Shown one piece after another: positions 22,762 to 43,064 of a DNA stretch of 64,000 bases. The stretch lies in NCBI GenBank assembly GCA_964599615.1, contig CAZRGF010000005.1, positions 6,829-70,828 on the forward strand. The letters are read 5' to 3'. The DNA comes from Candidatus Woesearchaeota archaeon (GTDB taxonomy: Archaea; Nanobdellota; Nanobdellia; Pacearchaeales; UBA284). Positions within the stretch are counted from its first letter, which is position 1. Each line of letters opens with the position of its first letter. The notes beneath the pieces were generated by a model, which saw only the letters and a program-made list of their open reading frames with translations, ran no database searches and was not told where the DNA came from. Made by a program: the position numbers and the translations under genes.

Positions 22762-22788
22762 ATTGTGTATAACTTACACTATTTAAAT
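22762..22788 (-). promoter_or_regulatory. TATA box (TTTAAATA on sense strand) overlapping a 21-bp palindrome; candidate NrtR operator
   Basis: ATTGTGTA-taact-TACACTAT (22762-22782) has a GT-N7-AC core and is nearly identical to 43038-43058. Lies about 160-180 nt upstream of the nrtR ATG. Confidence 0.6.
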
Positions 22789-22790
22789 TT

Positions 22791-23327
22791 TTATTTTTCT
22801 TTAGAATTATGTCTCCTTAAAAATTCATACATCAATAATTGAGTTGTTTTTGCTCCATGAATCTGATTCTTCATAGCCATTTGGAATGCTTTGTAAAATG
22901 GAATCTTGATAACTTTTATTTTTTCAAATTCCCCTAATTTTTGACTTACATATTCTCCTTTTCCACGAGCTGAAAAAAGATAGACTTTTTCACTATCATG
23001 CCCTTCAGAAGAATAAAGATATCCATGACTTTCAACCTGTTCTTTTTTTATCCTTATTCCACATTCCTCTTCTAATCCTTCTACAATCACTTCTAATGGA
23101 CTTAATCCTGGTTTGTCAAGGGTTTCTGCTGCCAATGATAGTACTTCTTTGCCAATAGCTGGTCTGAATTGCTTCACAAAGTAAACCATGTCTTTTTCAT
23201 CAATATAAAGTATAATTGCTGCATTTTTTGAGACAATAACATCATAATCTTTTCCGCCATATGGTCTTTTGACTAATTTAATATGACCTTGGTAAACTAG
23301 TCTGTCTTTTCCTTTTTGGGTTTTCAT
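22791..23327 (-). CDS. Nudix hydrolase, ADP-ribose pyrophosphatase-like
   Basis: NudF-like layout with Nudix box region AAETLDKPGLSPLEVIVEGLEEECG. Confidence 0.7.
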   Translation of the reverse strand: MKTQKGKDRLVYQGHIKLVKRPYGGKDYDVIVSKNAAIILYIDEKDMVYFVKQFRPAIGKEVLSLAAETLDKPGLSPLEVIVEGLEEECGIRIKKEQVESHGYLYSSEGHDSEKVYLFSARGKGEYVSQKLGEFEKIKVIKIPFYKAFQMAMKNQIHGAKTTQLLMYEFLRRHNSKEK

Positions 23328-23478: not shown

Positions 23479-24993
23479 TTATTTTTCTCCCACTAAAATC
23501 AGGTGAGTTGCAGGGAATTCTATTGGAACAAGCTTTTTATTTTTCATCTCAAAAAAAGCCACTTTTCCTAAAAATCTATTCTTTTTTATCCAAGGATTTA
23601 AAATTTCTTTTGAGCCCCTTATTATTTTAAAGCCAGTTTTCTTTAATATCTTGGAGTATTCTTTGAAAGTCATAATTCCATAGACCTCATTTGCTTCTAC
23701 ATCCCAATTTTCTACATAATCTTTTTTATTAATAAATTCGTAAGCATCTTGGACAGACAGCTTATAATATTTCTTTTTGTCAATCATCTTGATTTCATAT
23801 TTAATGCCTGTTTTTTTCTTAAAAACTTTGGAGAATTTCAAAAATCGTGCTTCTGTTGACAGTTTTTTAATTTTAGCAGGATGGATTTTACCATCACTAT
23901 TATTTAGCCAAAGATAAATAGTCTTTTTTTCAGGTTTAACCCCATCACGGATTATTATCCTGCCTGTTTTTTTTAATTCTTCATAAGAATTTTTTATTGT
24001 TTGTTTTACAAACTTTAGATTATAATTATTATAAGAGTAAGCTTCATGGAGAATTGATGAAAAAATCTTTGTAGAGATTGAATTTGAAGTGAAGTTTTTC
24101 TTTGAGATGTCTTTTTTATAGAGGTATACATTCGGATGCGGATAGTTTTGGTTTAAACAATGACTTAGAAATTCTCTTGATAGGTCTAATCCGATTATTT
24201 CGGAATTTTTGAATTTTTCAGATAAGTAGTAAAGCAAGGTGCCTGTTCCGCAACCACAATCAATTATTTTTCCAGATTTTATAAATGAAGAGAGTTCTTT
24301 CCATTTCATGGGCATGCTAGAGTCCATCAGATTACCATACGTCCTGAAATCTCTTGTTTCAGATAATTCTCCTTCTGATGTTGTTAGAAGATCATGGTTT
24401 ATCTCGAGAATAATATCCCCTAGCCCATATTTTTTATATGTTTCTATTGAAGCGTCTGAAGTATATCTTTTCCATTTTGCATCAGGGCGGTCCCAATTTT
24501 TTTTAGCAGATAACAGCATATTTATGATTTCAAATGGTCTGAAAGTTTTGTAAGTCCCATTTTTTCTTATCTCTGCTAGAATAACATTATATTTTTTCTT
24601 CTTGAACAATTTTATCACAGAAGGAGTTGAACTGAATAAGACGGTATTTTCCGGGTTTATAAATAATTTCCCCCTGCTTTGATATATTATCTGTTTTTCA
24701 ATATAGTCCACCCATTTATTGTCCCCGGGGATATCGGGGATAGGGACGATCTTGTAATTAATGCCTATTTTTTCTAGAAATGGGACGAGTGCTTCCACCC
24801 TTTTTTCTATGGACAATGGGTTTCTCTTTGTGTTTTCATGATTTGAAGAAGTTACTGCTACAATCAAAGTATCAAAAGGTTTTTTTATGGTTATTCCAAT
24901 TTTTTTGGGGGAAATTCCTTTTAACGAAGAAAGAGCTTTCTGTTGAAATTTTGTTGTTAGGTGCATTCTGCCAAGAAATAATATCTGTGTCAT
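23479..24993 (-). CDS. fusion of an archaeal NadM-like (NMN adenylyltransferase fold, degenerate HxGH) domain and a class I SAM methyltransferase
   Basis: N-terminus LFLGRMHLTTKFQ (compare GRFQPFHKGH), NPLSIEKRV and VPIPDIPGDNKWVDYIE match NadM blocks. C-terminus has IIDCGCGTGTLLYYL motif I. Confidence 0.65.
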   Translation of the reverse strand: MTQILFLGRMHLTTKFQQKALSSLKGISPKKIGITIKKPFDTLIVAVTSSNHENTKRNPLSIEKRVEALVPFLEKIGINYKIVPIPDIPGDNKWVDYIEKQIIYQSRGKLFINPENTVLFSSTPSVIKLFKKKKYNVILAEIRKNGTYKTFRPFEIINMLLSAKKNWDRPDAKWKRYTSDASIETYKKYGLGDIILEINHDLLTTSEGELSETRDFRTYGNLMDSSMPMKWKELSSFIKSGKIIDCGCGTGTLLYYLSEKFKNSEIIGLDLSREFLSHCLNQNYPHPNVYLYKKDISKKNFTSNSISTKIFSSILHEAYSYNNYNLKFVKQTIKNSYEELKKTGRIIIRDGVKPEKKTIYLWLNNSDGKIHPAKIKKLSTEARFLKFSKVFKKKTGIKYEIKMIDKKKYYKLSVQDAYEFINKKDYVENWDVEANEVYGIMTFKEYSKILKKTGFKIIRGSKEILNPWIKKNRFLGKVAFFEMKNKKLVPIEFPATHLILVGEK

Positions 24994-25560: not shown

Positions 25561-26478
25561 TTATTCTTTTTTCGTAAGTTGGATTATATTTAATTTCTGC
25601 CAGTATTCATAACCTTGGTGATAGTTTTTTTTCAAACCTTGGCTTCTGAGATAACTTACCCAAGATTTTGAATTCAGTATATTGTTGACTTTAAGCGGAA
25701 CTTCCATTGTCTCGAGGACTTCCATATCCATCTGGGGTTTTCTTTTAAAAATTTCATTGTAGCATAGACTCGAGACATTTATCACAAGAACCCCATTATC
25801 TGTAAGATATTTTTGACCCTCATGGATAAGATAATCCAAAAGTCCTGTTCCTTCATAAGCGTTATCTCTTATGCTTCTTGGCCTTGGGACATATGGTGGA
25901 TTGCAGATAATCAGATCAAATTTCTGATTTGCTATTTTTTTAAGGCCATCTCCTACTGAAAAAGATGCTCTTGAATCCTGAATATTTCCCTTAGCGCACT
26001 CGATTGCCAAATTATTTATATCATTAACAAGAATAGATTTAATCTCTGCCTTTGCTAGGACATATTTACTTAGAAATCCCGAACCACATCCTATCTCAAC
26101 TACCCTGCCAAATTTTCTTCTTTGTTTGAATAGTTTCCTTAAAGCTTTGGCATATACCATTGTGTCAATTGAAGGGCACCAAACTTTGGAATGTTTGCTA
26201 TCCCAAAAAACACTTACTCTATCGTAAGCAACAATTCTTGGTTTTTCATTAAATAAAGAAAATAGGGTATCTCTTAAAGTTGGAGCTAATTTTCCAATTC
26301 GATAATTATCGGTCATTAGAACTGGATTTTTAAAAGTATAAACATGGGCTTTTTTTTCAGGAGGATATTCATAAACTCTTTTTCCTTTTGACCTGTCTTT
26401 GCCCATTATGCTTGCAAGTTCATGGCCATTTGCCCAAATCTCCTCCTTTCTCAAGTCTGAGCTTACTTTGATTATCAT
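25561..26478 (-). CDS. NPPY-motif SAM methyltransferase (HemK/PrmC-like N5-glutamine or N6-adenine type)
   Basis: VVEIGCGSGFLS motif I and DLIICNPPYVP motif IV. Confidence 0.7.
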   Translation of the reverse strand: MIIKVSSDLRKEEIWANGHELASIMGKDRSKGKRVYEYPPEKKAHVYTFKNPVLMTDNYRIGKLAPTLRDTLFSLFNEKPRIVAYDRVSVFWDSKHSKVWCPSIDTMVYAKALRKLFKQRRKFGRVVEIGCGSGFLSKYVLAKAEIKSILVNDINNLAIECAKGNIQDSRASFSVGDGLKKIANQKFDLIICNPPYVPRPRSIRDNAYEGTGLLDYLIHEGQKYLTDNGVLVINVSSLCYNEIFKRKPQMDMEVLETMEVPLKVNNILNSKSWVSYLRSQGLKKNYHQGYEYWQKLNIIQLTKKE

Positions 26479-26479
26479 T

Positions 26480-27373
26480 TTAAAATTTTACAACTCTTAG
26501 TGGATTTTTGCTTAATCTGATTATAACTTTATGGCCTTTGTTCAAATCAAATAAGAATGGGCCTTCACTTCCATCTATTGAAACTATCATATTATAATCA
26601 TCTGATTTTATTGTTATTTTCTTCGCAAAACCTTGATTTAATTTGTAATGTTTTCCCATATTTTTAGGTTCCCTATTAATAAATTGCAATTCTTTTTCAT
26701 GATTTTTAAATGATTTTGAACCTTTGATATTCATGAGCCAGGCTTTCGCGCCATCTTTTGAGGAAATAACAATTCCGCTGCTTTGTTGGTATTCGGACTG
26801 GTTGTCTGTTTTTATGTAATACCTCGCCATTTGTGTGCTTTTAGGTTTTCCAACAAAAATATCATTGACTGCTAAAAATCTGCAAGTTTCTTCATTGTAG
26901 ACCATTGCTTCTGGCCTGGAAAATTTTTGGATTTTGTACTTGTTTTGCAAGAATTTTTTAAACAACTTTTTGAAGTTTTTTGAATTTGCACACATAAAAA
27001 ATCCTTTGCTTCTTTTTAGGTCTGAATTTACTCCAAAAATCAATCTTGAATCATAGATGTAGTCTGATGCTTCAATAAAAGTTCCATCTCCACCAACAGG
27101 CATGATTAAATCAATATTTTTGAAATCTGATGGTTTTAACTTAGATTTTGTTGCAATTTTGTATTTTATCTTGTTCTTTGCTAAAGTTCTTTTAACGATT
27201 TCAAGTGTATTGTAATGGGTATTGTGCTCTCTTAACAACTCTTTTGCATTCAATCTTTTTTCTTTTAGAATTTTTTTTAATTTTTCTGGATTCTTGGTTT
27301 TATATTCTTTCTTATAATAATCAAGTGCAACTTGCTTTGTTATAATCAGTACTTTTTTAATTTTTTTGTTCAT
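26480..27373 (-). CDS. nadK: NAD kinase
   Basis: MPVGGDGTFIEAS and NDIFVG motifs. Confidence 0.85.
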   Translation of the reverse strand: MNKKIKKVLIITKQVALDYYKKEYKTKNPEKLKKILKEKRLNAKELLREHNTHYNTLEIVKRTLAKNKIKYKIATKSKLKPSDFKNIDLIMPVGGDGTFIEASDYIYDSRLIFGVNSDLKRSKGFFMCANSKNFKKLFKKFLQNKYKIQKFSRPEAMVYNEETCRFLAVNDIFVGKPKSTQMARYYIKTDNQSEYQQSSGIVISSKDGAKAWLMNIKGSKSFKNHEKELQFINREPKNMGKHYKLNQGFAKKITIKSDDYNMIVSIDGSEGPFLFDLNKGHKVIIRLSKNPLRVVKF

Positions 27374-32942: not shown

Positions 32943-33572
32943 TTATTGTAGTGCTTCCTTTAATTTTTTGATTAATTTAACTGCTTCTTCTACATCAATA
33001 AATTCAGTTTTGTGCAAAACCATTTTAGGGTTTAAGGTTAAAAACAAACTTATCAATCTTGATTGTTGTTCATATTTTTTATCTTTTTTATTTAAAGTTG
33101 GTGAACTCAAATAATCTAGGTCTACATTATTTACTATTTTCTTTGTTACCCCATCACCTGAAAATGCACTTTTGTCTTCTTCAAGTATATCTGCAATTCC
33201 GCTCATTATCCATCTACCAGTATACTGGCCAATTGCCCCTTCAAAATGTGGGACTTCTGAAAAGTAAGCATTCTCATCTATTAAGACTTCTAACATGCCA
33301 AATTCAAAATTTTTTAGATTTTCCCCTATTTCTGGGACAATTTTTCTAGCTTTATCAAAAAAACAGTAAACATTTAAGATTTCTTCTAAATAATCTCCGT
33401 CTCTTGGGTTTGACCAATAAAATCCCTTATTTTTGCTAATCAAATCTAATAAATAATTCTTACATGCTTCAGGGCTAGTTAATGTGGTAAGTGCTTTGTC
33501 CATAGAATAATAATAAGTTATTCTTTCTTTCTTTTGCCCCTCTATTTTCTCAATTAATTCCTGATTGCTCAT
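32943..33572 (-). CDS. hypothetical protein wedged between nadA and nadC
   Basis: 209-aa ORF with a 4-nt overlap with nadA. No motif recognised. Confidence 0.55.
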   Translation of the reverse strand: MSNQELIEKIEGQKKERITYYYSMDKALTTLTSPEACKNYLLDLISKNKGFYWSNPRDGDYLEEILNVYCFFDKARKIVPEIGENLKNFEFGMLEVLIDENAYFSEVPHFEGAIGQYTGRWIMSGIADILEEDKSAFSGDGVTKKIVNNVDLDYLSSPTLNKKDKKYEQQSRLISLFLTLNPKMVLHKTEFIDVEEAVKLIKKLKEALQ

Positions 33573-36261: not shown

Positions 36262-37062
36262 TTAATTTTTTGGGGTTAGGATTACATTCAGGGGTTTGTC
36301 TGAAATCCTTATTTCTGCTTGGTCTTTTTTATTGAAGTCATAGACTTTGTCATCCAAAACAATCACTCCCCCATAATCCCTCATAGATTCAAACTCTATT
36401 CTTTCTCCCATTCCTATCTCTCCTTTTAGTATTGTTGACTTAAACACTCTTTTGCCAAAATAAGGTTCTCGGACTATTAACTTTAGTCTTTTTTCACTGT
36501 AGTCAAAAGGTTCTCCTCCAGCAGATTTAAACCATGCAGTTGAACCAGAGCCTGTTGAAATAATAACTCCTGAACTTCTTTGTTCTTCTTCTCTATCCCT
36601 TAATTTTATTTTATATCTCGCAGCAAGAAATTGCATGGCTGCACCTATAAAAATACTATTTAATACATAGATTCTTATCAATTCTTTATTTTTTACAACT
36701 TCTGCCCTTTCTCTTTGAATTGTTCTGAAATTGCCTTCTAGAATATGTTCCAGATTATTTAGGGTATTAGGATCAATACTAGTCAATGCTCCTTCACTTG
36801 TGTCTGGGTCTGAATTAACCCCCAAAATAAGCTGATTTTCTACAAGATTTGAAGCTCTTGTGAAAGTCCCATCTCCCCCAATACTTATAACCAAACCATA
36901 TTCCCCAAAATTAGTATTATCCATCTCATCTATGCTGATTGATGAATAATTTATTCCAGCCAATCTCTTTTCTACTTCTTTTACAGTTTTTAAATGACTT
37001 AAAGTTTTTTTGTCTCCTTTAACAATCAATATTTTTTGGGGTTTCATTTTTTGTGTTACCAT
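36262..37062 (-). CDS. nadK: NAD kinase (second copy)
   Basis: ISIGGDGTFTRAS motif and similar length. Confidence 0.85.
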   Translation of the reverse strand: MVTQKMKPQKILIVKGDKKTLSHLKTVKEVEKRLAGINYSSISIDEMDNTNFGEYGLVISIGGDGTFTRASNLVENQLILGVNSDPDTSEGALTSIDPNTLNNLEHILEGNFRTIQRERAEVVKNKELIRIYVLNSIFIGAAMQFLAARYKIKLRDREEEQRSSGVIISTGSGSTAWFKSAGGEPFDYSEKRLKLIVREPYFGKRVFKSTILKGEIGMGERIEFESMRDYGGVIVLDDKVYDFNKKDQAEIRISDKPLNVILTPKN

Positions 37063-37145: not shown

Positions 37146-38093
37146 TTATCTTGCATTTTGTTTCTCCCTTAATAAAAAGTAGGGGGTGAGGCATAACCTG
37201 TAAAAGTCTTCTCTTTTAAATTTCTCTAAGCTTTCTGCTTTATCGGAATAAGCTAGCAAAATGGCATCACTAGGTTTTAAATTCAGATTTTCTCTTTTAT
37301 TTATTTCAGCGATTATCTCTTTTTGAAGGGGTTTATACTTATTATAGAGATATTGTGGTTTGATTGTGTCTAGGATGTTATCAGCGATTATCAAGGAGAG
37401 TATATTTTTGAACCAGATATTTGCTTCAAGTGTCTTTATTTTCTCTCTTGAGAATACAAATCCAATTCTATAATAATACAATCCAAAAGGTTTGCTCATT
37501 GAAAAAATAACTGCAAGGATATTCTTATTTTTAAGATCAAATAAGTTGTTTTTTGTCAAACCAATATAAGTGCCATCAAATACAACTTTATGGATTTTGC
37601 AAATCTCATTAATAACATAATTTGGGATTATATTTCCGTCTCTTGCAGATGGATTTGAAATGAAGAAGATTCCTGGTTCAAGTTTTGAAAAATCTTGATT
37701 TTTCTCGACTGCTACAATTTTTAGGCCTATTCTTGAACCATATTCCCTGTACCCTTCATATTCTCCTTTCAAGACATAAATAATGGCTCGGGGATTCTCA
37801 GTTTTTATTTTTACAAGAATATGGAAAATCCCCTCACTTGCTCCAGAAGTATAATACCTATTTTCAAAATCTTTTAAGTCAGGGGTTTGAGATTTATGAT
37901 ATTCTATAAACTTATTAATTACAGGGGTATGAAAATTATCTAAACCTGGTTCAATTGACTGCAAAAATATCTCATGGGGGAATTTCTTTGTTATTTTGTC
38001 AATTATTTCTCTGATTTCAGGAAAATAATAACAATAGACTGTTCTAGTTGCTTTTAGTGAAAATTTTTGGTTTTTATTTGTAGAGTTTATCAT
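37146..38093 (-). CDS. PLP-dependent aminotransferase class I/II-fold protein (short)
   Basis: FSMSKPFGLYYYRIGFVF matches the SxSK-x3-G-x3-R-x-G Schiff-base lysine block. Start moved to an ATG forming an ATGA overlap with the radical SAM gene. Confidence 0.55.
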   Translation of the reverse strand: MINSTNKNQKFSLKATRTVYCYYFPEIREIIDKITKKFPHEIFLQSIEPGLDNFHTPVINKFIEYHKSQTPDLKDFENRYYTSGASEGIFHILVKIKTENPRAIIYVLKGEYEGYREYGSRIGLKIVAVEKNQDFSKLEPGIFFISNPSARDGNIIPNYVINEICKIHKVVFDGTYIGLTKNNLFDLKNKNILAVIFSMSKPFGLYYYRIGFVFSREKIKTLEANIWFKNILSLIIADNILDTIKPQYLYNKYKPLQKEIIAEINKRENLNLKPSDAILLAYSDKAESLEKFKREDFYRLCLTPYFLLREKQNAR

Positions 38094-38968
38094 ATTAAGG
38101 TGGCACCTCCAAATTGCCAATCAAATCTTAGGTGTCCATCTGGGAAAAATATTATTTGTCTTAGATTATCAGACTTTGGCATTATACTCAAAGCATCTGT
38201 AAGTGAGACATTTTGCCCATTTAAGTCATAAACAACAGAACCGTTTTCTAGAGTCATTAATTTATGCGCATTTTTTTCAAGAAAATTTGTAATTTTATCT
38301 ATTTCTTTCTTCTTTATTATATGCTTCTTTGTCCAATTAAGAATATCCGAGTTTTCTGCTTCATAAGGATAAGCTAATTTCCTTAAGCTTAATTGCTCAA
38401 CCTTTAAATTCTTTGCATAGTTTATCATCTCTTTTACTTCGTTAACATTATCAATATAACCCCGTATCATCGTGCAACTTAACCTTACTGAAAACCCCAA
38501 CTCATGCAGTTTTTTTATTACATTTTCTAAGTTTATGTAATTTGAATTTTGAACTATCAACTCTTTATTTTTTTTGTGGCTATAATGGGTGATAGAAATT
38601 GAGATTATAGTTAAGCCCAAGGCATACCATTTTTTAAGGTAATGGAGATATTGTGATTCTTCAAGTAATAAAGCATTTGTCTGAAGTTCTATAACTGGAA
38701 ATTCAAAAGTAGCTAAATTCTCTAAAAACTGAGTTATTTGTTCTGGGTAAAGGGTTGGTTCTCCTTTTCCAGTTATTATCACACTGGTTACCTTATTTGT
38801 CTGGGCTAATACACATGATTTTCTGAAATTTCTCCAATTTATTTTATTGAGCTGAGAACACATTCCTTCTTTTGGAGTCATTTTTGATATACAATAAGGG
38901 CAACTAGCATTACAGTTTGTTGTTCCCGCTATTATGCTAAATGATTGGATTTTCATTTTTAATTTCAT
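38090..38968 (-). CDS. radical SAM enzyme (small, no obvious SPASM or B12 domain)
   Basis: CNASCPYC (CxxxCxxC), GKGEPTLYP and IELQTNALLL blocks. Confidence 0.8.
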   Translation of the reverse strand: MKLKMKIQSFSIIAGTTNCNASCPYCISKMTPKEGMCSQLNKINWRNFRKSCVLAQTNKVTSVIITGKGEPTLYPEQITQFLENLATFEFPVIELQTNALLLEESQYLHYLKKWYALGLTIISISITHYSHKKNKELIVQNSNYINLENVIKKLHELGFSVRLSCTMIRGYIDNVNEVKEMINYAKNLKVEQLSLRKLAYPYEAENSDILNWTKKHIIKKKEIDKITNFLEKNAHKLMTLENGSVVYDLNGQNVSLTDALSIMPKSDNLRQIIFFPDGHLRFDWQFGGATLI

Positions 38969-39396
38969 CTCCTTGGTCTGATTTTTCTTCTGTAATCATT
39001 GATAATTTGATTATGGTCAAAAGCAAGTTGGGGAAAGTTAAGCATAGGATGATTATCATACAAAGGAAAATATCTAGCTTCAATAGCATCGTCTCCTGCT
39101 TTTTTGTGACCAGAGTATTTTGTAGCAATGTAAACATGTGAGATTACATGGCCTCTTGGGTCTCTATCTGGGTTAGAATATACTCCAAACAACTTTAATT
39201 CTTGGATATCAATATCTGTTTCTTCTTTTGTTTCCCTTATACATGTCTGTTCAATTGTTTCTTCCCCATACTCGAGATAGCCCCCTGGCAAAGCCCACAT
39301 ATCTTTGAATGGTTCGTGTTTTCTTTTAACTAAAAGAATGCTTCCTTTTCTTTCAATTATAATATCTGCTGTGCATCCTGGATTTTTGTATTTCAT
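38965..39396 (-). CDS. Nudix hydrolase
   Basis: Nudix box GGYLEYGEETIEQTCIRETKEETD. Confidence 0.85.
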   Translation of the reverse strand: MKYKNPGCTADIIIERKGSILLVKRKHEPFKDMWALPGGYLEYGEETIEQTCIRETKEETDIDIQELKLFGVYSNPDRDPRGHVISHVYIATKYSGHKKAGDDAIEARYFPLYDNHPMLNFPQLAFDHNQIINDYRRKIRPRR

Positions 39397-39821
39397 TTTT
39401 TATCCTTTGTTTGTTTTTTGGGAATTAAACAGACTCCTAACCTATAGTGTTTTAGATCTTCTTCTAAAGAAAGTTGAATGTCCTTCCATTTAGTAGTACT
39501 AATCCAACCTAGCCTACCATCGTTTGATGAGTCTCTTGCAACTATCAAGTTTTCAAGTGATATTGGAGAAACATCAATTGCTTCATGTTCTTTGAGTTCT
39601 TTTCCTAGAGACTTATACCTATTCTTAATTGTTCTTGTTACTAAATATTGAGATTTAGTTAAAGCTTCATCTTGTGAACTTGCAAGGACATAAAATCTTT
39701 CGTTAACTGGAATTGTTCCGGGCATTCTAGCATCATTATCATAATATTGTGATTTGTAATGAATTTGAAAAAGCATTAATCCATTTGCAGGCAAAGTTTC
39801 ATAAGGTGTTTTTTTAACCAT
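39393..39821 (-). CDS. hypothetical protein
   Basis: 142-aa ORF with a 4-nt overlap with the Nudix gene. No motif recognised. Confidence 0.5.
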   Translation of the reverse strand: MVKKTPYETLPANGLMLFQIHYKSQYYDNDARMPGTIPVNERFYVLASSQDEALTKSQYLVTRTIKNRYKSLGKELKEHEAIDVSPISLENLIVARDSSNDGRLGWISTTKWKDIQLSLEEDLKHYRLGVCLIPKKQTKDKK

Positions 39822-39830
39822 TTTAGTTTT

Positions 39831-40280
39831 TTAAGTACAAGATTTAATTTGTTGAGCTAAATTATTTAATGAGTATACTAATTTGATTTCAGGCTTGGCT
39901 AATTGCATTTGTATTTCAATATCTGCTCTTCTTTTGTATTTTGGATCAACTCCGACAAATATGAACTTATTTTGCATGCTTTGTTTTCCTAGTTCAAACA
40001 ATGTAATCGGGCATAGGGCCTCTTTAGGAAACCAGAATGAAATTGCAGTTGCTTTTTTGAAATGTTCATATTCCCAAGTTGTTTGGGCCCGAGTTAGTTC
40101 ATTTTTATCACCATCAGGAAAATGTTTTCTTCTTGGATTAAGCAAAGTTATTTTTTCATAATACAGTAATTTGACTAATGTAGATTGCCAATCCCTGCAT
40201 CCTGTTATGCCTCCTGCGAAGAATAGGCTTTTTTCATTTTTTCCTGGTTTGTAGATTTCAGGGCACTCAATGTATTTCAT
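39831..40280 (-). CDS. nucleoside 2-deoxyribosyltransferase-like protein
   Basis: SLFFAGGITGCRDWQ ... LLNPRR ... WEYEH ... FWFPKEALCPITLFELG matches the Nuc_deoxyri_tr2-type pattern. Confidence 0.6.
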   Translation of the reverse strand: MKYIECPEIYKPGKNEKSLFFAGGITGCRDWQSTLVKLLYYEKITLLNPRRKHFPDGDKNELTRAQTTWEYEHFKKATAISFWFPKEALCPITLFELGKQSMQNKFIFVGVDPKYKRRADIEIQMQLAKPEIKLVYSLNNLAQQIKSCT

Positions 40281-40281
40281 T

Positions 40282-41034
40282 TTATAGTCTCCCTTCTAAA
40301 ACATCTTTAGTTGTAATTAATTGGGTTCCGGCATTTACCATCTCTTCTATAGCTTTTTTTCCGAAATCTGGATCAATCTTTCCTGAAAAATCAATATCAA
40401 CTTCTTCTATGGCATCTGTAACAAGATAAGCTACGAAATCGGGATTTATCTCCCTGCCATATTTTAATTGTGCAAGAACAGCTGCTCTGTCACAGTAATC
40501 GGTTCCAAATCCAACATTTATTGTTTTTTTCAATCCTGCTCTGACAGCTAATTGGAAAGCTGTTTTAAAATTGGGATTTGTTGCAATATCATAGCTTTGT
40601 TTTTCAAATATTATTTGCATTCCTGATTTGAGAAAACCTACAAGTTCTTGTTCAGTATATATCCTTATTCCTGATCTTGGTCCGTCTTTTCTTCTAATAT
40701 AGATATCTTTTTGTGGCTCTAATTCTTTTATCCTTAGCTGACCCCAGGTCCCATTCATACCATGGTCTTCAAAAGAACCACCTTCATTCCTTATTAATTC
40801 AGCATCTTCATAAAAATGCCTGTCAACTGAACCCAAAATACCCCATTTTTTTTCTTCAGCTTTTTTATGTATTAAGATTATTTTAGGAAGAACTGCTTCT
40901 GCCCCATATGCCCTCATATTCCAGGGTTTATTTGCATGAACAAACAAAGCTCCTGTCCTAAGAGAAAAATCATGTTCAACATCTGTCTCATAAACTGCGA
41001 TTTCTGGGAAAACAAAATTCGGACAGGAATTCAT
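40282..41034 (-). CDS. isochorismatase / nicotinamidase-like cysteine hydrolase
   Basis: ETDVEHDF (Asp), EKQSYD (Lys) and GFGTDYCDRAAV (Cys) catalytic-triad blocks. Larger than typical PncA. Confidence 0.6.
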   Translation of the reverse strand: MNSCPNFVFPEIAVYETDVEHDFSLRTGALFVHANKPWNMRAYGAEAVLPKIILIHKKAEEKKWGILGSVDRHFYEDAELIRNEGGSFEDHGMNGTWGQLRIKELEPQKDIYIRRKDGPRSGIRIYTEQELVGFLKSGMQIIFEKQSYDIATNPNFKTAFQLAVRAGLKKTINVGFGTDYCDRAAVLAQLKYGREINPDFVAYLVTDAIEEVDIDFSGKIDPDFGKKAIEEMVNAGTQLITTKDVLEGRL

Positions 41035-41786
41035 CTTATTTCACCTTCTAAGACATTTTTTGTCTTGACTAATTTAGCACCTGCTTTTACCATCTTTTCA
41101 AGGGCTGATTTGGTTGTTTCAGGAGAAATTCCCATTATAGCATCTTCAACAACATAGCATTGTATTCTTCTTGCTTGCATGCCAATAACCGCTGCCCTTA
41201 TGCTTTCTATTCCTACGCCGTAAACAACTGCTTCTTTGACTCCAGCTTGTTCAAGTATTTTTTCAGCTAGTGGATTAGTAAAAACATTGTAGGATTGTTT
41301 TTCAATGTAAAGACCACCATGGTGGTATAATATTGGAAATGCGTGGGGTGTTCCGGCATTTGCAAGAGATGGTATTTTGTAGAACATTTCTTGAATACTT
41401 TTTACGTTGTTGTGAATTATCTCTTGTTCCCCTATTCTGTTGATTTTGCCTTCAAGATGATGGGGGATGTATGTGTGTCTATCTTCAGATCCGGTTTTAT
41501 CCCACCACCATATCCCAGTTTCATGAATTTTTAGCTGTCCTATTGTCATGTTCATACAGTAATCTGGAAAAGGACCGCCCCATCTTTTCAACTCAAGTTC
41601 TCGAGTTTTATATTCTTCTGTTCCAAAGAGCTTGTCAACACTTCCTAAAATTGGAATTATGTTTTTTTCAGCATATTCTGTTAATTTTCTAAGATTTGGT
41701 TTTATCAGTTCTGCATTTGGGACATAAAGTGCTCCATCTTTGTTCATGAAGTCATTTTGAGTGTCAACATCATAAAATATTCTCAT
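41031..41786 (-). CDS. isochorismatase-like paralog lacking the nucleophilic Cys
   Basis: DVDTQNDF and EKQSYNVF are conserved. The position of the catalytic Cys reads GVGIESIRAAV, compared with GFGTDYCDRAAV in the neighbour. Confidence 0.55.
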   Translation of the reverse strand: MRIFYDVDTQNDFMNKDGALYVPNAELIKPNLRKLTEYAEKNIIPILGSVDKLFGTEEYKTRELELKRWGGPFPDYCMNMTIGQLKIHETGIWWWDKTGSEDRHTYIPHHLEGKINRIGEQEIIHNNVKSIQEMFYKIPSLANAGTPHAFPILYHHGGLYIEKQSYNVFTNPLAEKILEQAGVKEAVVYGVGIESIRAAVIGMQARRIQCYVVEDAIMGISPETTKSALEKMVKAGAKLVKTKNVLEGEIR

Positions 41787-42976
41787 CTTTTCCCTCCTAA
41801 TCTTAGAACCAGGTTTTGATTTGGTCTGTAAAATCTTCCTGTTTTTGAAATTGGGACAAAGTGTTCTGGGTCTTCTCCAACATCAACAATATCCATTTTT
41901 GTTGCGCGTGAATGGAAAAGTTGTCCAACTCCTAAGCCATCATAAAGTCTTTTTTTGAAATAATGTTCTGCTTCTGTAAATGCTTTAACCTTGGCAGGAT
42001 TTGCAAAACCACTTGATAGCATGATACTAACATAAGCTAAGTTTTCTTCGTCTAGTCTTTTTCGCATTGCAAGTGTTCCTGAAATTGTCACGCCATGGCC
42101 TGCGTAATATAACTTGCTTCTTGGGCTAAGTTTTAAAAAATCAGTGTCATAAAGGATTGCATCTTCATCATTTATTGCCCCCTGGCCAATATTCTCCCCG
42201 CAGGTGTCTATTCTTGTTCCATAGAGTTTTGTTCTTCCTTGCTTTTCTAAATCTCTTGCAGTTGTTATTGTGTCATCTATTTCTTTATTTCTGTAATCAC
42301 AAAGAATTATTCTTGGAACATCAGTTTCTATATGCCTGTCAAATGCCAGCATTGTTTCTGGAACAGCTCTTTCATAGCCATATTTCCAAGCCATGATATT
42401 TTCTAAAACATGGGGTGTTGTTCCACTGCCTTTTTTTCCAATACACGCTGCACCAATATCTGTTGAAGCTCCGGTCATGCCTCCCTTAAGAACTGCTCTT
42501 GAAATTGCTTCATCTTCATCCCATCTCCAGTGTCTTGCGCCAAAGTAGGTGCATGGTCTGTTATTTGCTGCTTTAACAACTGCCGTAGATCTTCTTGTTA
42601 CTTCTTCGAGATCTACTCCTTGTTGGTCATTTGCTTTAGTTGTTTCAGCTGCTACAACTCCCAAGTACATTGTTTCTAAATCGATGATATCTTGTATTGG
42701 AGATTCAATAATCATGTATGTGTCTTTTGGTTGATATTCTGCACCTTCTGGCAGAGCAAAAACTTTTCCGCCATGTTCTACTAGTGGGCTGTATTTTTCG
42801 AGAATAGCTAATGCTTCATCAATGCCATAGATTCTTCCTGGCCCTTTTCTTATGAAAACCTGGGCACGAACCCAGGGATTTAGTTTTTCTCCCTCAAGAA
42901 CTGTTTTTGTCCTTAAGAAATATTTATCTATGTAGCGGGTTGGGTCTGAAGGTAAATTGAATTTTTCTGCGTACAT
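41783..42976 (-). CDS. pncB: nicotinate phosphoribosyltransferase
   Basis: Length and blocks YFLRTKTVL, GTRIDTCGE and GVGQL are typical of archaeal-type NAPRTase. Confidence 0.8.
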   Translation of the reverse strand: MYAEKFNLPSDPTRYIDKYFLRTKTVLEGEKLNPWVRAQVFIRKGPGRIYGIDEALAILEKYSPLVEHGGKVFALPEGAEYQPKDTYMIIESPIQDIIDLETMYLGVVAAETTKANDQQGVDLEEVTRRSTAVVKAANNRPCTYFGARHWRWDEDEAISRAVLKGGMTGASTDIGAACIGKKGSGTTPHVLENIMAWKYGYERAVPETMLAFDRHIETDVPRIILCDYRNKEIDDTITTARDLEKQGRTKLYGTRIDTCGENIGQGAINDEDAILYDTDFLKLSPRSKLYYAGHGVTISGTLAMRKRLDEENLAYVSIMLSSGFANPAKVKAFTEAEHYFKKRLYDGLGVGQLFHSRATKMDIVDVGEDPEHFVPISKTGRFYRPNQNLVLRLGGKR

Positions 42977-43037
42977 TTTATTGGTTTTTTTGGTTTGATT
43001 TATTATGTTATTTTGTTAGTGTTTATCTTACTCTAAC

Positions 43038-43064
43038 ATAGTGTAGAATATACACTATTTAAAC
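43038..43064 (-). promoter_or_regulatory. TATA box (TTTAAATA on sense strand) overlapping a perfect 21-bp palindrome; candidate NrtR operator of the NAD array
   Basis: ATAGTGTA-gaata-TACACTAT (43038-43058) has a GT-N7-AC core. Lies 62-82 nt upstream of the pncB ATG (42976). Confidence 0.6.

Follow-up and report, generated by a model that had tools for sequence, protein, structure and literature searches.

The synthesis and salvage of nicotinamide adenine dinucleotide (NAD) are regarded as fully mapped, and we know of no radical S-adenosylmethionine (SAM) enzyme in either. Partnerships between such an enzyme and one dependent on pyridoxal 5'-phosphate (PLP) are familiar from elsewhere: in DesII/DesI and BlsE/BlsH, which belong to secondary-metabolite clusters, a radical SAM dehydratase and then a PLP aminotransferase act on a nucleoside or deoxysugar. 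In known NrtR regulons a regulator combining a Nudix domain with a winged helix is accompanied by a palindrome of conserved core GT-N7-AC, found before NAD genes and before nrtR, and the binding of NrtR to DNA is relieved by ADP-ribose (Rodionov et al. 2008, PMC2330246). The same paper contains no mention of radical SAM, the word 'radical' having no occurrences in it. Here we describe a gene pair, encoding a radical SAM enzyme (hereafter rSAM) and a PLP enzyme, which lies in a 64,000-nucleotide stretch of contig CAZRGF010000005.1 with a G+C content of about 32% ('the window' denotes this whole stretch). The window is assigned to a DPANN archaeon, since the closest relatives of its proteins are found in metagenome bins of Pacearchaeota, Woesearchaeota and Nanoarchaeota. 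The pair (Table 1) is part of an array of about 23 genes and 21 kb, running from 42976 to 21935 entirely on the minus strand, the majority of whose genes are NAD-related.

The rSAM–PLP operon, including copies that lie apart from NAD genes, is predicted to belong to an NrtR-type NAD regulon, since the same operator stands before NAD genes and before stand-alone rSAM–PLP operons. The predicted operator is a 19-bp palindrome, TAGTGTA-N5-TACACTA, with the core GT-N7-AC. In the window a perfect copy, TAGTGTAGAATATACACTA (43039-43057), and another with two mismatches (43017-43035) lie upstream of the NAPRT gene, just downstream of a TATA-like box, TTTAAATA, while a site with one mismatch (22763-22781) precedes nrtR. 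Beyond the window, two sets of loci around rSAM relatives (numbered with the prefix L) were compared: a cellular set of 84 loci (1.65 Mb), 52 of them well-flanked (at least 5 kb on each side), and a viral set of 75 loci (1.14 Mb). A simple script served to call open reading frames (ORFs), which were given labels using hidden Markov models (HMMs) built on our own clusters. Some of the loci nearly duplicate one another (such as L004/L005/L020, L008/L009 and L012/L052); metagenome bins keep the taxon labels under which they were deposited; the viral contigs derive from IMG/VR and some may be cellular DNA; and gene content was read from the loci only, so that absence at a locus does not equate to absence from the genome.

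The cellular loci contain 75 operator sites with no more than one mismatch, compared to 0.66 in shuffled sequence, and the viral loci contain none. The gene right after the operator is NAPRT in 19 cases and rSAM in 15, the other assigned genes in that position being PncA, NadE, NadK, ARH, NadA, NMNAT, PnuC, NadB, PLP and NrtR. Stand-alone rSAM–PLP operons from Collier- and Woesebacteria have a perfect site upstream of the rSAM ATG, at a distance of 11-13 nt; in these operons, from bacteria of the Candidate Phyla Radiation (CPR), the operator overlaps the -10 region following TTGACA-N17. On these sites the regulon is predicted to be of the ADP-ribose-responsive NrtR type, and to be present in DPANN archaea as well as CPR bacteria. 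The same operator was observed in the DPANN archaeon and in CPR loci L012, L051, L054, L069, L071, L074 and others, and the NAD regulon, together with its operator, thereby appears to be common to two domains. It differs from the regulons described previously in that DPANN and CPR share one operator and in containing a radical SAM–PLP operon.

Gene neighbourhoods also connect rSAM with NAD metabolism. In 36 of the 52 well-flanked cellular loci rSAM has one or more NAD genes no further than 7 kb away (NMNAT in 28, PncA-like, NadE and NadK in 24 each, NrtR in 23 and NAPRT in 22); NadK is found within this distance in 33 of all 84. The association is seen in DPANN, Saccharibacteria, Parcubacteria, Obscuribacter, where rSAM closes a nadR–NMNAT–nadK operon, and Planctomycetota. 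A core of NAPRT–nicotinamidase–rSAM–PLP, the usual setting of the pair, recurs in DPANN (L017, L026, L066, L014 and L006), and nicotinamidase is the commonest identified gene upstream of rSAM. The link of rSAM and PLP to NAD that had been proposed from gene order in the window is therefore upheld by operator and neighbourhood alike across archaea and bacteria, with rSAM also found beside phage NAD salvage genes. The preliminary description had further reasoned that absence from otherwise syntenic NAD arrays would indicate a chance insertion. Only two of six close DPANN NAD arrays carry rSAM and PLP, so the pair is an accessory in such arrays, and the operator evidence argues that its presence there is not a chance insertion. 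A general replacement of NMNAT, NadA or NadB by rSAM was considered and rejected, as complete pathways co-occur with it, both in the window and in the viral locus L119.

The two enzymes form a conserved unit, translationally coupled in the window and fused elsewhere. The PLP gene adjoins the rSAM gene in 39 of the 84 cellular loci (it follows directly in 35 and precedes in four), and a 666-residue protein (P0238) is a natural rSAM–PLP fusion whose C-terminal part is 38% identical to the full-length PLP protein of the window. In two Collierbacteria loci a divergent gene of the MttB family (trimethylamine methyltransferase-like; L012:7016-8473 and L013:7528-8985) stands beside the operon, rSAM–PLP and MttB together interrupting the rpoBC–rpsL–rpsG–fusA–tuf region between fusA and rpsG. 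MttB was rejected as a partner of the pair since it is not recurrent at other loci. A DPANN locus (L177:3289-7934) and one from Anaerolineales (L050:8448-12551) have in common an extended cluster consisting of a HemN-like (STM4012-like) radical SAM protein, a small MoaA-like radical SAM protein, rSAM and PLP; their HemN-like proteins match at an E-value of about 1e-125. Two operator copies lie in front of the cluster in L050, and in L177 a gene for an IMPase/CysQ/HisN-like phosphatase is immediately upstream of the pair.

The rSAM protein is a member of the radical SAM superfamily: its Pfam match is above the cut-off, its model (pLDDT, the predicted local distance difference test, 89.4) has the radical SAM fold, and the cysteines of its single [4Fe-4S] motif, C19-x3-C23-x2-C26 (CNASCPYC), are invariant, as is T66-G-K-G-E70-P, its GGE-type SAM-binding motif. 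It has 962 relatives at E<1e-5, and those at E<1e-30 form 277 clusters at 50% identity. When each GTDB species was represented by a single genome, relatives proved to be encoded at 166 places, spanning DPANN, CPR, Obscuribacter, Planctomycetota, Acidobacteriota and Chloroflexota. Among 138 cellular and viral members the residues kept in at least 85% include C19, C23, P24, C26, S28, M30, T66, E70, Q96, T97, S125, R162, Q192, R196, I273, G278 and W284. R162, conserved in 99%, aligns with K163 of MoaA, a residue that contacts the phosphates of GTP, and is the sole residue-level hint that the rSAM substrate may be phosphorylated. No cysteine beyond the three of the cluster is conserved family-wide in these 138 members, and SPASM/twitch cysteines are not conserved in the family. 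C52 and C165 were considered as hydrogen-donor cysteines of the epimerase or methyl-synthase type and rejected, being kept in the DPANN clade and not family-wide.

Structure searches had been suggested for these proteins, and Foldseek, run on the rSAM and PLP models, identified MoaA/viperin and HisC/CobD as nearest without placing either protein inside those families. MoaA (GTP 3',8-cyclase) is the top match of rSAM both in sequence profile and in structure (template modelling, or TM, score 0.71). Common to both are the N-terminal CxxxCxxC, GxGEP and xTN motifs, as well as a basic residue where MoaA has K163, but MoaA has a C-terminal second Fe-S cluster, bound by three more cysteines, which the rSAM family lacks. 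rSAM has instead a C-terminal beta domain of its own carrying the motif IFFPDGHLRYDWQ, its NCBIfam MoaA score is 59.3 bits against a cut-off of 284, and no molybdopterin genes were found near it. Next come CTP-bound viperins (TM 0.65-0.69), NTP 3'-deoxy-3',4'-didehydro synthases which resemble rSAM in size and in having a single cluster. Here too the scores fall far below threshold, at 31 bits against an NCBIfam cut-off of 180 and 33 bits for the PADLOC pVip model, and the contexts differ: that of rSAM is a NAD regulon, often with a PLP enzyme, whereas that of viperin is a defence island. BlsE is a distant fold match (TM about 0.5); rSAM–PLP is like DesII/DesI and BlsE/BlsH in its two-enzyme logic, not by sequence membership.

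The PLP protein, which has 603 relatives, belongs to the HisC/CobD branch of the fold-type I PLP enzymes, as indicated by its SxSK and DxxY motifs, N147 and R209, together with its fold match. The Schiff-base lysine is K201, in SMSKPFG, and the residues invariant in the family (N147, D173, Y176, S198, S200, K201 and R209) align with the PLP motifs of HisC. In enzymes of this branch the Asp of DxxY binds the pyridine nitrogen, the Asn belongs to an NPxNPxG-type loop and the Arg holds the phosphate of PLP. Foldseek placed HisC (histidinol-phosphate aminotransferase) and CobD (L-threonine-O-3-phosphate decarboxylase), enzymes that act on phosphate esters, at the top for its model (pLDDT 90.0). 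HisC and CobD are likewise its top sequence matches, and their PLP-anchoring residues are kept. Nevertheless, its scores against the NCBIfam HisC/CobD equivalogs (37.8 against 276 and 32.3 against 290) are well short of the cut-offs, an N-terminal motif, VYxYYFPExR, is its own and not that of HisC/CobD, and neither his nor cob genes were found in the 84 neighbourhoods. As a possible analogue we weighed the SAM- and NAD-using PLP enzyme SbzP and set it aside, as it is absent from the PDB matches. Comparison of rSAM and PLP with NCBIfam, Pfam, PHROGs and PADLOC yielded only superfamily-level or sub-threshold matches; no member of either family was found in the PDB or BFVD, where matches were to generic radical SAM and HisC/CobD proteins. 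Full-text literature searches yielded no paper in which NrtR, NAD salvage or Preiss–Handler genes are connected with a radical SAM enzyme. The radical SAM unit, with or without PLP, is both widespread and uncharacterised.

Three pathways by which phages rebuild NAD+ have been described: NARP1 (Adps and Namat), NARP2 (Nampt and Nmnat) and NARP3 (PnuC and NadR) (PMC13464706). The viral loci gathered here resemble them in carrying NAD supply genes, in this case PncA, NAPRT and NadE with rSAM, but a nicotinamidase/NAPRT set is missing from all three, as is any radical SAM enzyme (PMC13464706). The 75 viral contigs, several of 300-460 kb, encode rSAM homologues of 20-55% identity. In 16 of them PncA and/or NAPRT lies within 6 kb of rSAM, sometimes along with NadE or NMNAT, as in the arrangements NAPRT–NadE–rSAM–PncA (L107) and rSAM–126 aa–NAPRT–NadE–NMNAT–PncA (L119). 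Nicotinamidase, NAPRT, NadE and rSAM were observed together at L107:5110-9492, L119:8001-12304 (plus NMNAT), L148:5852-10705 and L165:6192-10929. NadA or NadB never accompanies viral rSAM among the 75 loci. The rSAM protein of the window gives no match in cultured phages, and the sole matches of a phage-type rSAM query are LR756501 and LR756503, unannotated 735-kb records of uncultured phage. No PLP partner stands beside rSAM in phages: the one viral PLP homologue, a distant one (27% identity; L182:4962-6137, on a 173-kb contig), lies by a ribonucleotide reductase-like gene and has no adjoining rSAM.

In the preliminary description rSAM and PLP were two of five genes making up a single coupled module, the others encoding a protein like nucleoside 2-deoxyribosyltransferase (NDT-like), an ORFan and a Nudix hydrolase. 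As far as gene structure is concerned this picture was accurate: all five ORFs were confirmed on the minus strand with the coordinates of Table 1, the last four genes are chained by 4-nt ATGA overlaps at three junctions (ORFan/Nudix, Nudix/rSAM and rSAM/PLP), Pfam bore out the four domain guesses with no match for the 142-residue ORF, and the flanks are those described, NAPRT and two isochorismatase-like genes upstream and NadK/PnuC/NadR downstream. The overlap at the PLP gene results from the ATG at 38093 used in public gene calls (315 residues), the alternative in a mechanical ORF list being a TTG at 38120. The module itself was not borne out. The exact five-gene order was observed on three contigs only, all bearing the identical protein, so the five-gene order as a whole is not a conserved unit: rSAM and PLP are one pair, NDT-like and Nudix another, and the ORFan is sporadic. 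The NDT-like, ORFan and Nudix genes are shown to be inserted, in the window, between the putative nicotinamidase and rSAM.

The NDT-like gene is present in seven of the 84 loci. Its product belongs to PF15891, both by a score above the gathering cut-off and by the acidic residue of the xxFExG segment, which in the window reads LFELGK; the closest PDB entry is an uncharacterised protein, 4mcj (1e-5). NDT-like and Nudix are a separate recurring pair. They adjoin one another in L170, a close DPANN NAD array without rSAM, and five NDT::Nudix-like fusions of about 390 residues, the NDT-like part being N-terminal, occur in CPR (Saccharibacteria and Parcubacteria). The fusions are located at L049:10954-12126, L059:6738-7922, L086:12107-13279, L057:2060-3340 and L068:1182-2348, in NAD loci by rSAM, nicotinamidase or NAPRT, and the Nudix-like box of their C-terminal domain is partly degenerate. 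The Nudix identity of that half is weak: one of the five matches our NrtR/Nudix HMM and Pfam is negative.

The Nudix protein of the window is predicted to be a hydrolase of the ADP-ribose pyrophosphatase type from its likeness to NadM and from its Nudix box, GGYLEYGEETIEQTCIRETKEETD, read from the window sequence with the catalytic RE..EE. In NCBIfam it comes closest to the Nudix half of NadM and to NtrR, and PDB matches include the NadM structures 2qjt and 2qjo. On these matches to NadM/NrtR it is an ordinary companion of NAD genes; the earlier statement that none of the five activities belongs to NAD metabolism was mistaken in its case, the relevant half of NadM being an ADP-ribose pyrophosphatase. 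The ORFan matches nothing in Pfam, NCBIfam, PHROGs or PADLOC, in keeping with its label, but it has 17 relatives and is not strictly an orphan. Two relatives on long contigs stand alone in unrelated surroundings, at least one being in a CPR (Paceibacterota) bin, and it is not similar to the 156-residue gene upstream of rSAM in L006. The ORFan is a sporadic insert and not a conserved member of the array; as a member of a module it was rejected, the relatives examined being solitary in CPR contigs.

As to function, the best explanation available, which we advance tentatively, is a radical step on a phosphorylated, NAD-related ribose followed by transamination, the two together being an accessory to salvage or recycling. 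Action on a phosphorylated ribose is suggested by the likeness of rSAM to MoaA and viperin, its single cluster and the Arg at the position of the phosphate-binding Lys of MoaA. In such a scheme rSAM would abstract hydrogen from the ribose of NAD(H), nicotinamide or nicotinate mononucleotide (NMN/NaMN) or ADP-ribose and would yield a deoxy-keto sugar phosphate; the pyridine base might be released in the process. Transamination of this 2-oxo-alkyl phosphate product would next fall to the HisC/CobD-like enzyme; the substrate of HisC itself is of the type R-CH2-CO-CH2-O-P. The step would be induced along with NAD supply in response to ADP-ribose, as a signal of NAD breakdown, and would feed nicotinamidase and then NAPRT. 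NDT-like and Nudix would provide a separate hydrolytic route, acting as pyrophosphatase and N-glycosidase on NAD, NMN or ADP-ribose, and the ORFan would have no role in the radical or the hydrolytic route. A role in salvage or recycling that feeds nicotinamidase and NAPRT is weakly favoured, because nicotinamidase is the commonest identified upstream neighbour of rSAM, because the PLP partner is dispensable in half of the lineages, because phages carry rSAM alone or with PncA and NAPRT, and because the regulatory logic would fit supply over consumption. The pathway for remodelling a nucleotide that had been put forward in the preliminary description is compatible with the MoaA/viperin-like fold and the HisC/CobD-like partner, but not as a pathway of five genes. 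A more far-reaching proposal would be a novel radical reaction on a pyridine nucleotide or ADP-ribose, with rSAM as a fifth enzyme of nicotinamidase/NAPRT (Preiss–Handler) salvage in DPANN, CPR and huge phages. NAD metabolism would thereby gain its first radical SAM enzyme; the sugar-phosphate would be processed by the HisC-like enzyme, and the phage genes would form part of a fourth NAD+-rebuilding counter-defence. Taken as a whole, this we consider rather unlikely.

Several observations weigh against a radical step in NAD salvage. No NAD gene is nearby at 16 of the 52 well-flanked cellular loci, 12 of which retain the PLP partner, nor at 59 of the 75 viral loci, and in Collierbacteria the pair is found alone, without NAD genes, within the rpoC–rpsL–fusA region. 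The pair is missing from four of the six closely related DPANN NAD arrays, and the PLP partner is missing from half of the cellular loci and from all 75 viral rSAM loci. PLP status furthermore tracks rSAM similarity: in a nearest-neighbour comparison of 67 rSAM proteins the neighbour shares the same status in 58, the expectation being 33.5, which points to PLP-linked and PLP-less subclades that may differ in function. The IMPase-type phosphatase beside the pair occurs in one locus only and could equally well be an NADP phosphatase. The suggested chemistry draws on fold analogy and on the logic of viperin, MoaA, DesII and BlsE. Finally, cleavage of the N-glycosidic bond of NAD or NMN requires no radical enzyme, as hydrolytic enzymes already do both; since hydrolysis suffices for these, a feeder role would need a recalcitrant substrate.

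Some of the loci invite a biosynthetic reading, in which rSAM, with PLP where present, would be an oxygen-independent source of iminoaspartate, quinolinate or nicotinate/nicotinamide that backs up or replaces NadB or NadA. rSAM does lie within de novo operons, namely nadA-nadC-rSAM-nadB (L023), nadC-rSAM-nadB (L021) and nadC-nadA-nadB-PLP-rSAM (L087); at least eight loci (L034, L047, L049, L055, L058, L059, L064 and L080) have NadA near rSAM with no NadB/NadC within 10 kb, and L006 and L014 have NadB with no NadA nearby. Fold-type I PLP enzymes commonly bind aspartate, and other radical SAM enzymes replace oxygen-dependent steps of cofactor synthesis. Even so, the window itself has NadA, NadB and NadC beside the pair, many loci are salvage-only (for example NAPRT-PncA-NadE-Nudix-NMNAT-rSAM in L004), rSAM in phages stands alone or beside PncA/NAPRT and in no case beside NadA or NadB, and the PLP enzyme is of the HisC/CobD-like, phospho-substrate type rather than aspartate-aminotransferase-like, all of which leads us to judge this reading improbable. 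We would assign a similarly low likelihood to the alternative closest to the preliminary description, in which rSAM would drain NAD, and for that reason be co-regulated with its supply, in making a modified nucleotide (deoxy-didehydro, or amino-deoxy with PLP) that acts as cofactor, signal or inhibitor of NAD-cleaving enzymes. Radical SAM and aminotransferase action on nucleoside sugars is established logic in nucleoside natural products. The viperin/MoaA-like fold, the extended cluster shared by L177 and L050 and the accessory, patchy distribution are consistent with such a product, as are the many phages bearing rSAM alone, which is expected of a counter-defence gene. Yet the family is common in the most reduced genomes, the PADLOC viperin models match weakly (33 bits), and an operator derepressed by ADP-ribose beside nicotinamidase/NAPRT better fits supply (PMC2330246).

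There are also weak matches of rSAM to the peptide-modifying enzymes SuiB, SkfB and YydG and to the PFL-activating enzyme, which would accord with maturation of a protein or peptide, or with activation of another protein, for instance an NAD enzyme. This seems very improbable in view of the missing SPASM/twitch cysteines, only the three cluster cysteines being conserved family-wide, the absence of any conserved small ORF or glycyl-radical enzyme near rSAM, the nucleotide-acting nature of its best structural matches, MoaA and viperin, and its occurrence alone in phages. As for a chance insertion among NAD genes with no functional link, the uniqueness of the five-gene order to one lineage and the absence of the pair from most of the close NAD arrays would be in its favour, but the association recurs across archaea, several bacterial phyla and phages, and unlinked rSAM–PLP operons share the operator of NAD genes, a motif far commoner in the cellular loci than in shuffled sequence (75 sites compared to 0.66). 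The probability of this is negligible, and chance alone among the rivals is clearly excluded.

The array of the window opens with NAPRT, the two isochorismatase-like genes, NDT-like, ORFan, Nudix, rSAM and PLP, and continues with NadK, PnuC, NadR, NadA, a 209-residue gene without family and NadC; there follow ADP-ribosylglycohydrolase, glutamine-dependent NadE, NadB and a second NadK-like gene, and finally a methyltransferase, NMNAT, a second methyltransferase-domain protein, a 178-residue gene without family and NrtR.

Table 1. Position, strand and supporting evidence for the gene pair, its companions and the main regulatory features of the window
Feature	Position	Strand	Evidence
Radical SAM enzyme (rSAM), 292 aa	38090-38968	-	Pfam Radical_SAM PF04055, E=1.9e-12, above cut-off
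Fold-type I PLP enzyme, HisC/CobD-like, 315 aa	37146-38093	-	Pfam Aminotran_1_2, E=3.4e-8
Nudix hydrolase, intact Nudix box	38965-39396	-	Pfam NUDIX, E=2e-21
ORFan, 142 aa, no family assigned	39393-39821	-	No Pfam match
Nucleoside 2-deoxyribosyltransferase-like	39831-40280	-	PF15891 Nuc_deoxyri_tr2, E=4.4e-16, 59.6 bits vs cut-off 30
Isochorismatase-family, nicotinamidase-type residues intact (D, DxH, K, C)	40282-41034	-	Pfam, NCBIfam, alignment
Isochorismatase-family paralogue without catalytic Cys and without DxH	41031-41786	-	Alignment
NAPRT, archaeal-type, opens array	41783-42976	-	NCBIfam PRK08662, 3.3e-38
NAD kinase, directly after PLP gene	36262-37062	-	NCBIfam
NrtR regulator, Nudix + NrtR winged helix	21935-22603	-	Pfam PF00293 + PF21906; tblastn
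Two tandem NrtR-type operators before NAPRT	43017-43057	.	Motif match

Both isochorismatase-like proteins score under the NCBIfam cut-off for the PncA equivalog. In the upstream paralogue (41031-41786) TDYC is replaced by IE-S and the DxH metal motif by DKLF, while the downstream copy (40282-41034) retains both; judging from these substitutions, the former may be a pseudo-enzyme or have a different activity. A second NAD-kinase-like gene (26480-27373), whose Pfam match is weak (9.7e-5), accompanies the one at 36262-37062. Two genes with SAM-dependent methyltransferase domains (25561-26478 and 23479-24993) lie amid NadK-like, NMNAT and NrtR; we know of no role for methyltransferase-domain genes in NAD metabolism. 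A HemK-like (NPPY) methyltransferase cluster was found in five rSAM loci. The 209-residue gene (32943-33572), which overlaps its neighbours nadA and nadC at the ends, matches no family of the libraries searched, and the same is true of the 178-residue gene (22791-23327) adjoining nrtR.

A single operator occurring in archaea and CPR bacteria alike would make this regulon a clear example of one that extends over two domains. Three phage NAD+-rebuilding pathways have been described so far, none of which joins Preiss–Handler-type genes to a radical SAM enzyme (PMC13464706); the finding of rSAM in huge phages, by nicotinamidase, NAPRT and NadE, is of relevance to phage defence, in which NAD+ depletion is contested. 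Both proteins of the pair are small and look soluble, and their candidate substrates are few. In cells, an rSAM family is found under the predicted operator of the NAD regulator in the smallest of genomes, which retain few dispensable genes. This would imply either a missing reaction in the acquisition or recycling of vitamin B3 by these symbionts or an unfamiliar molecule derived from NAD.

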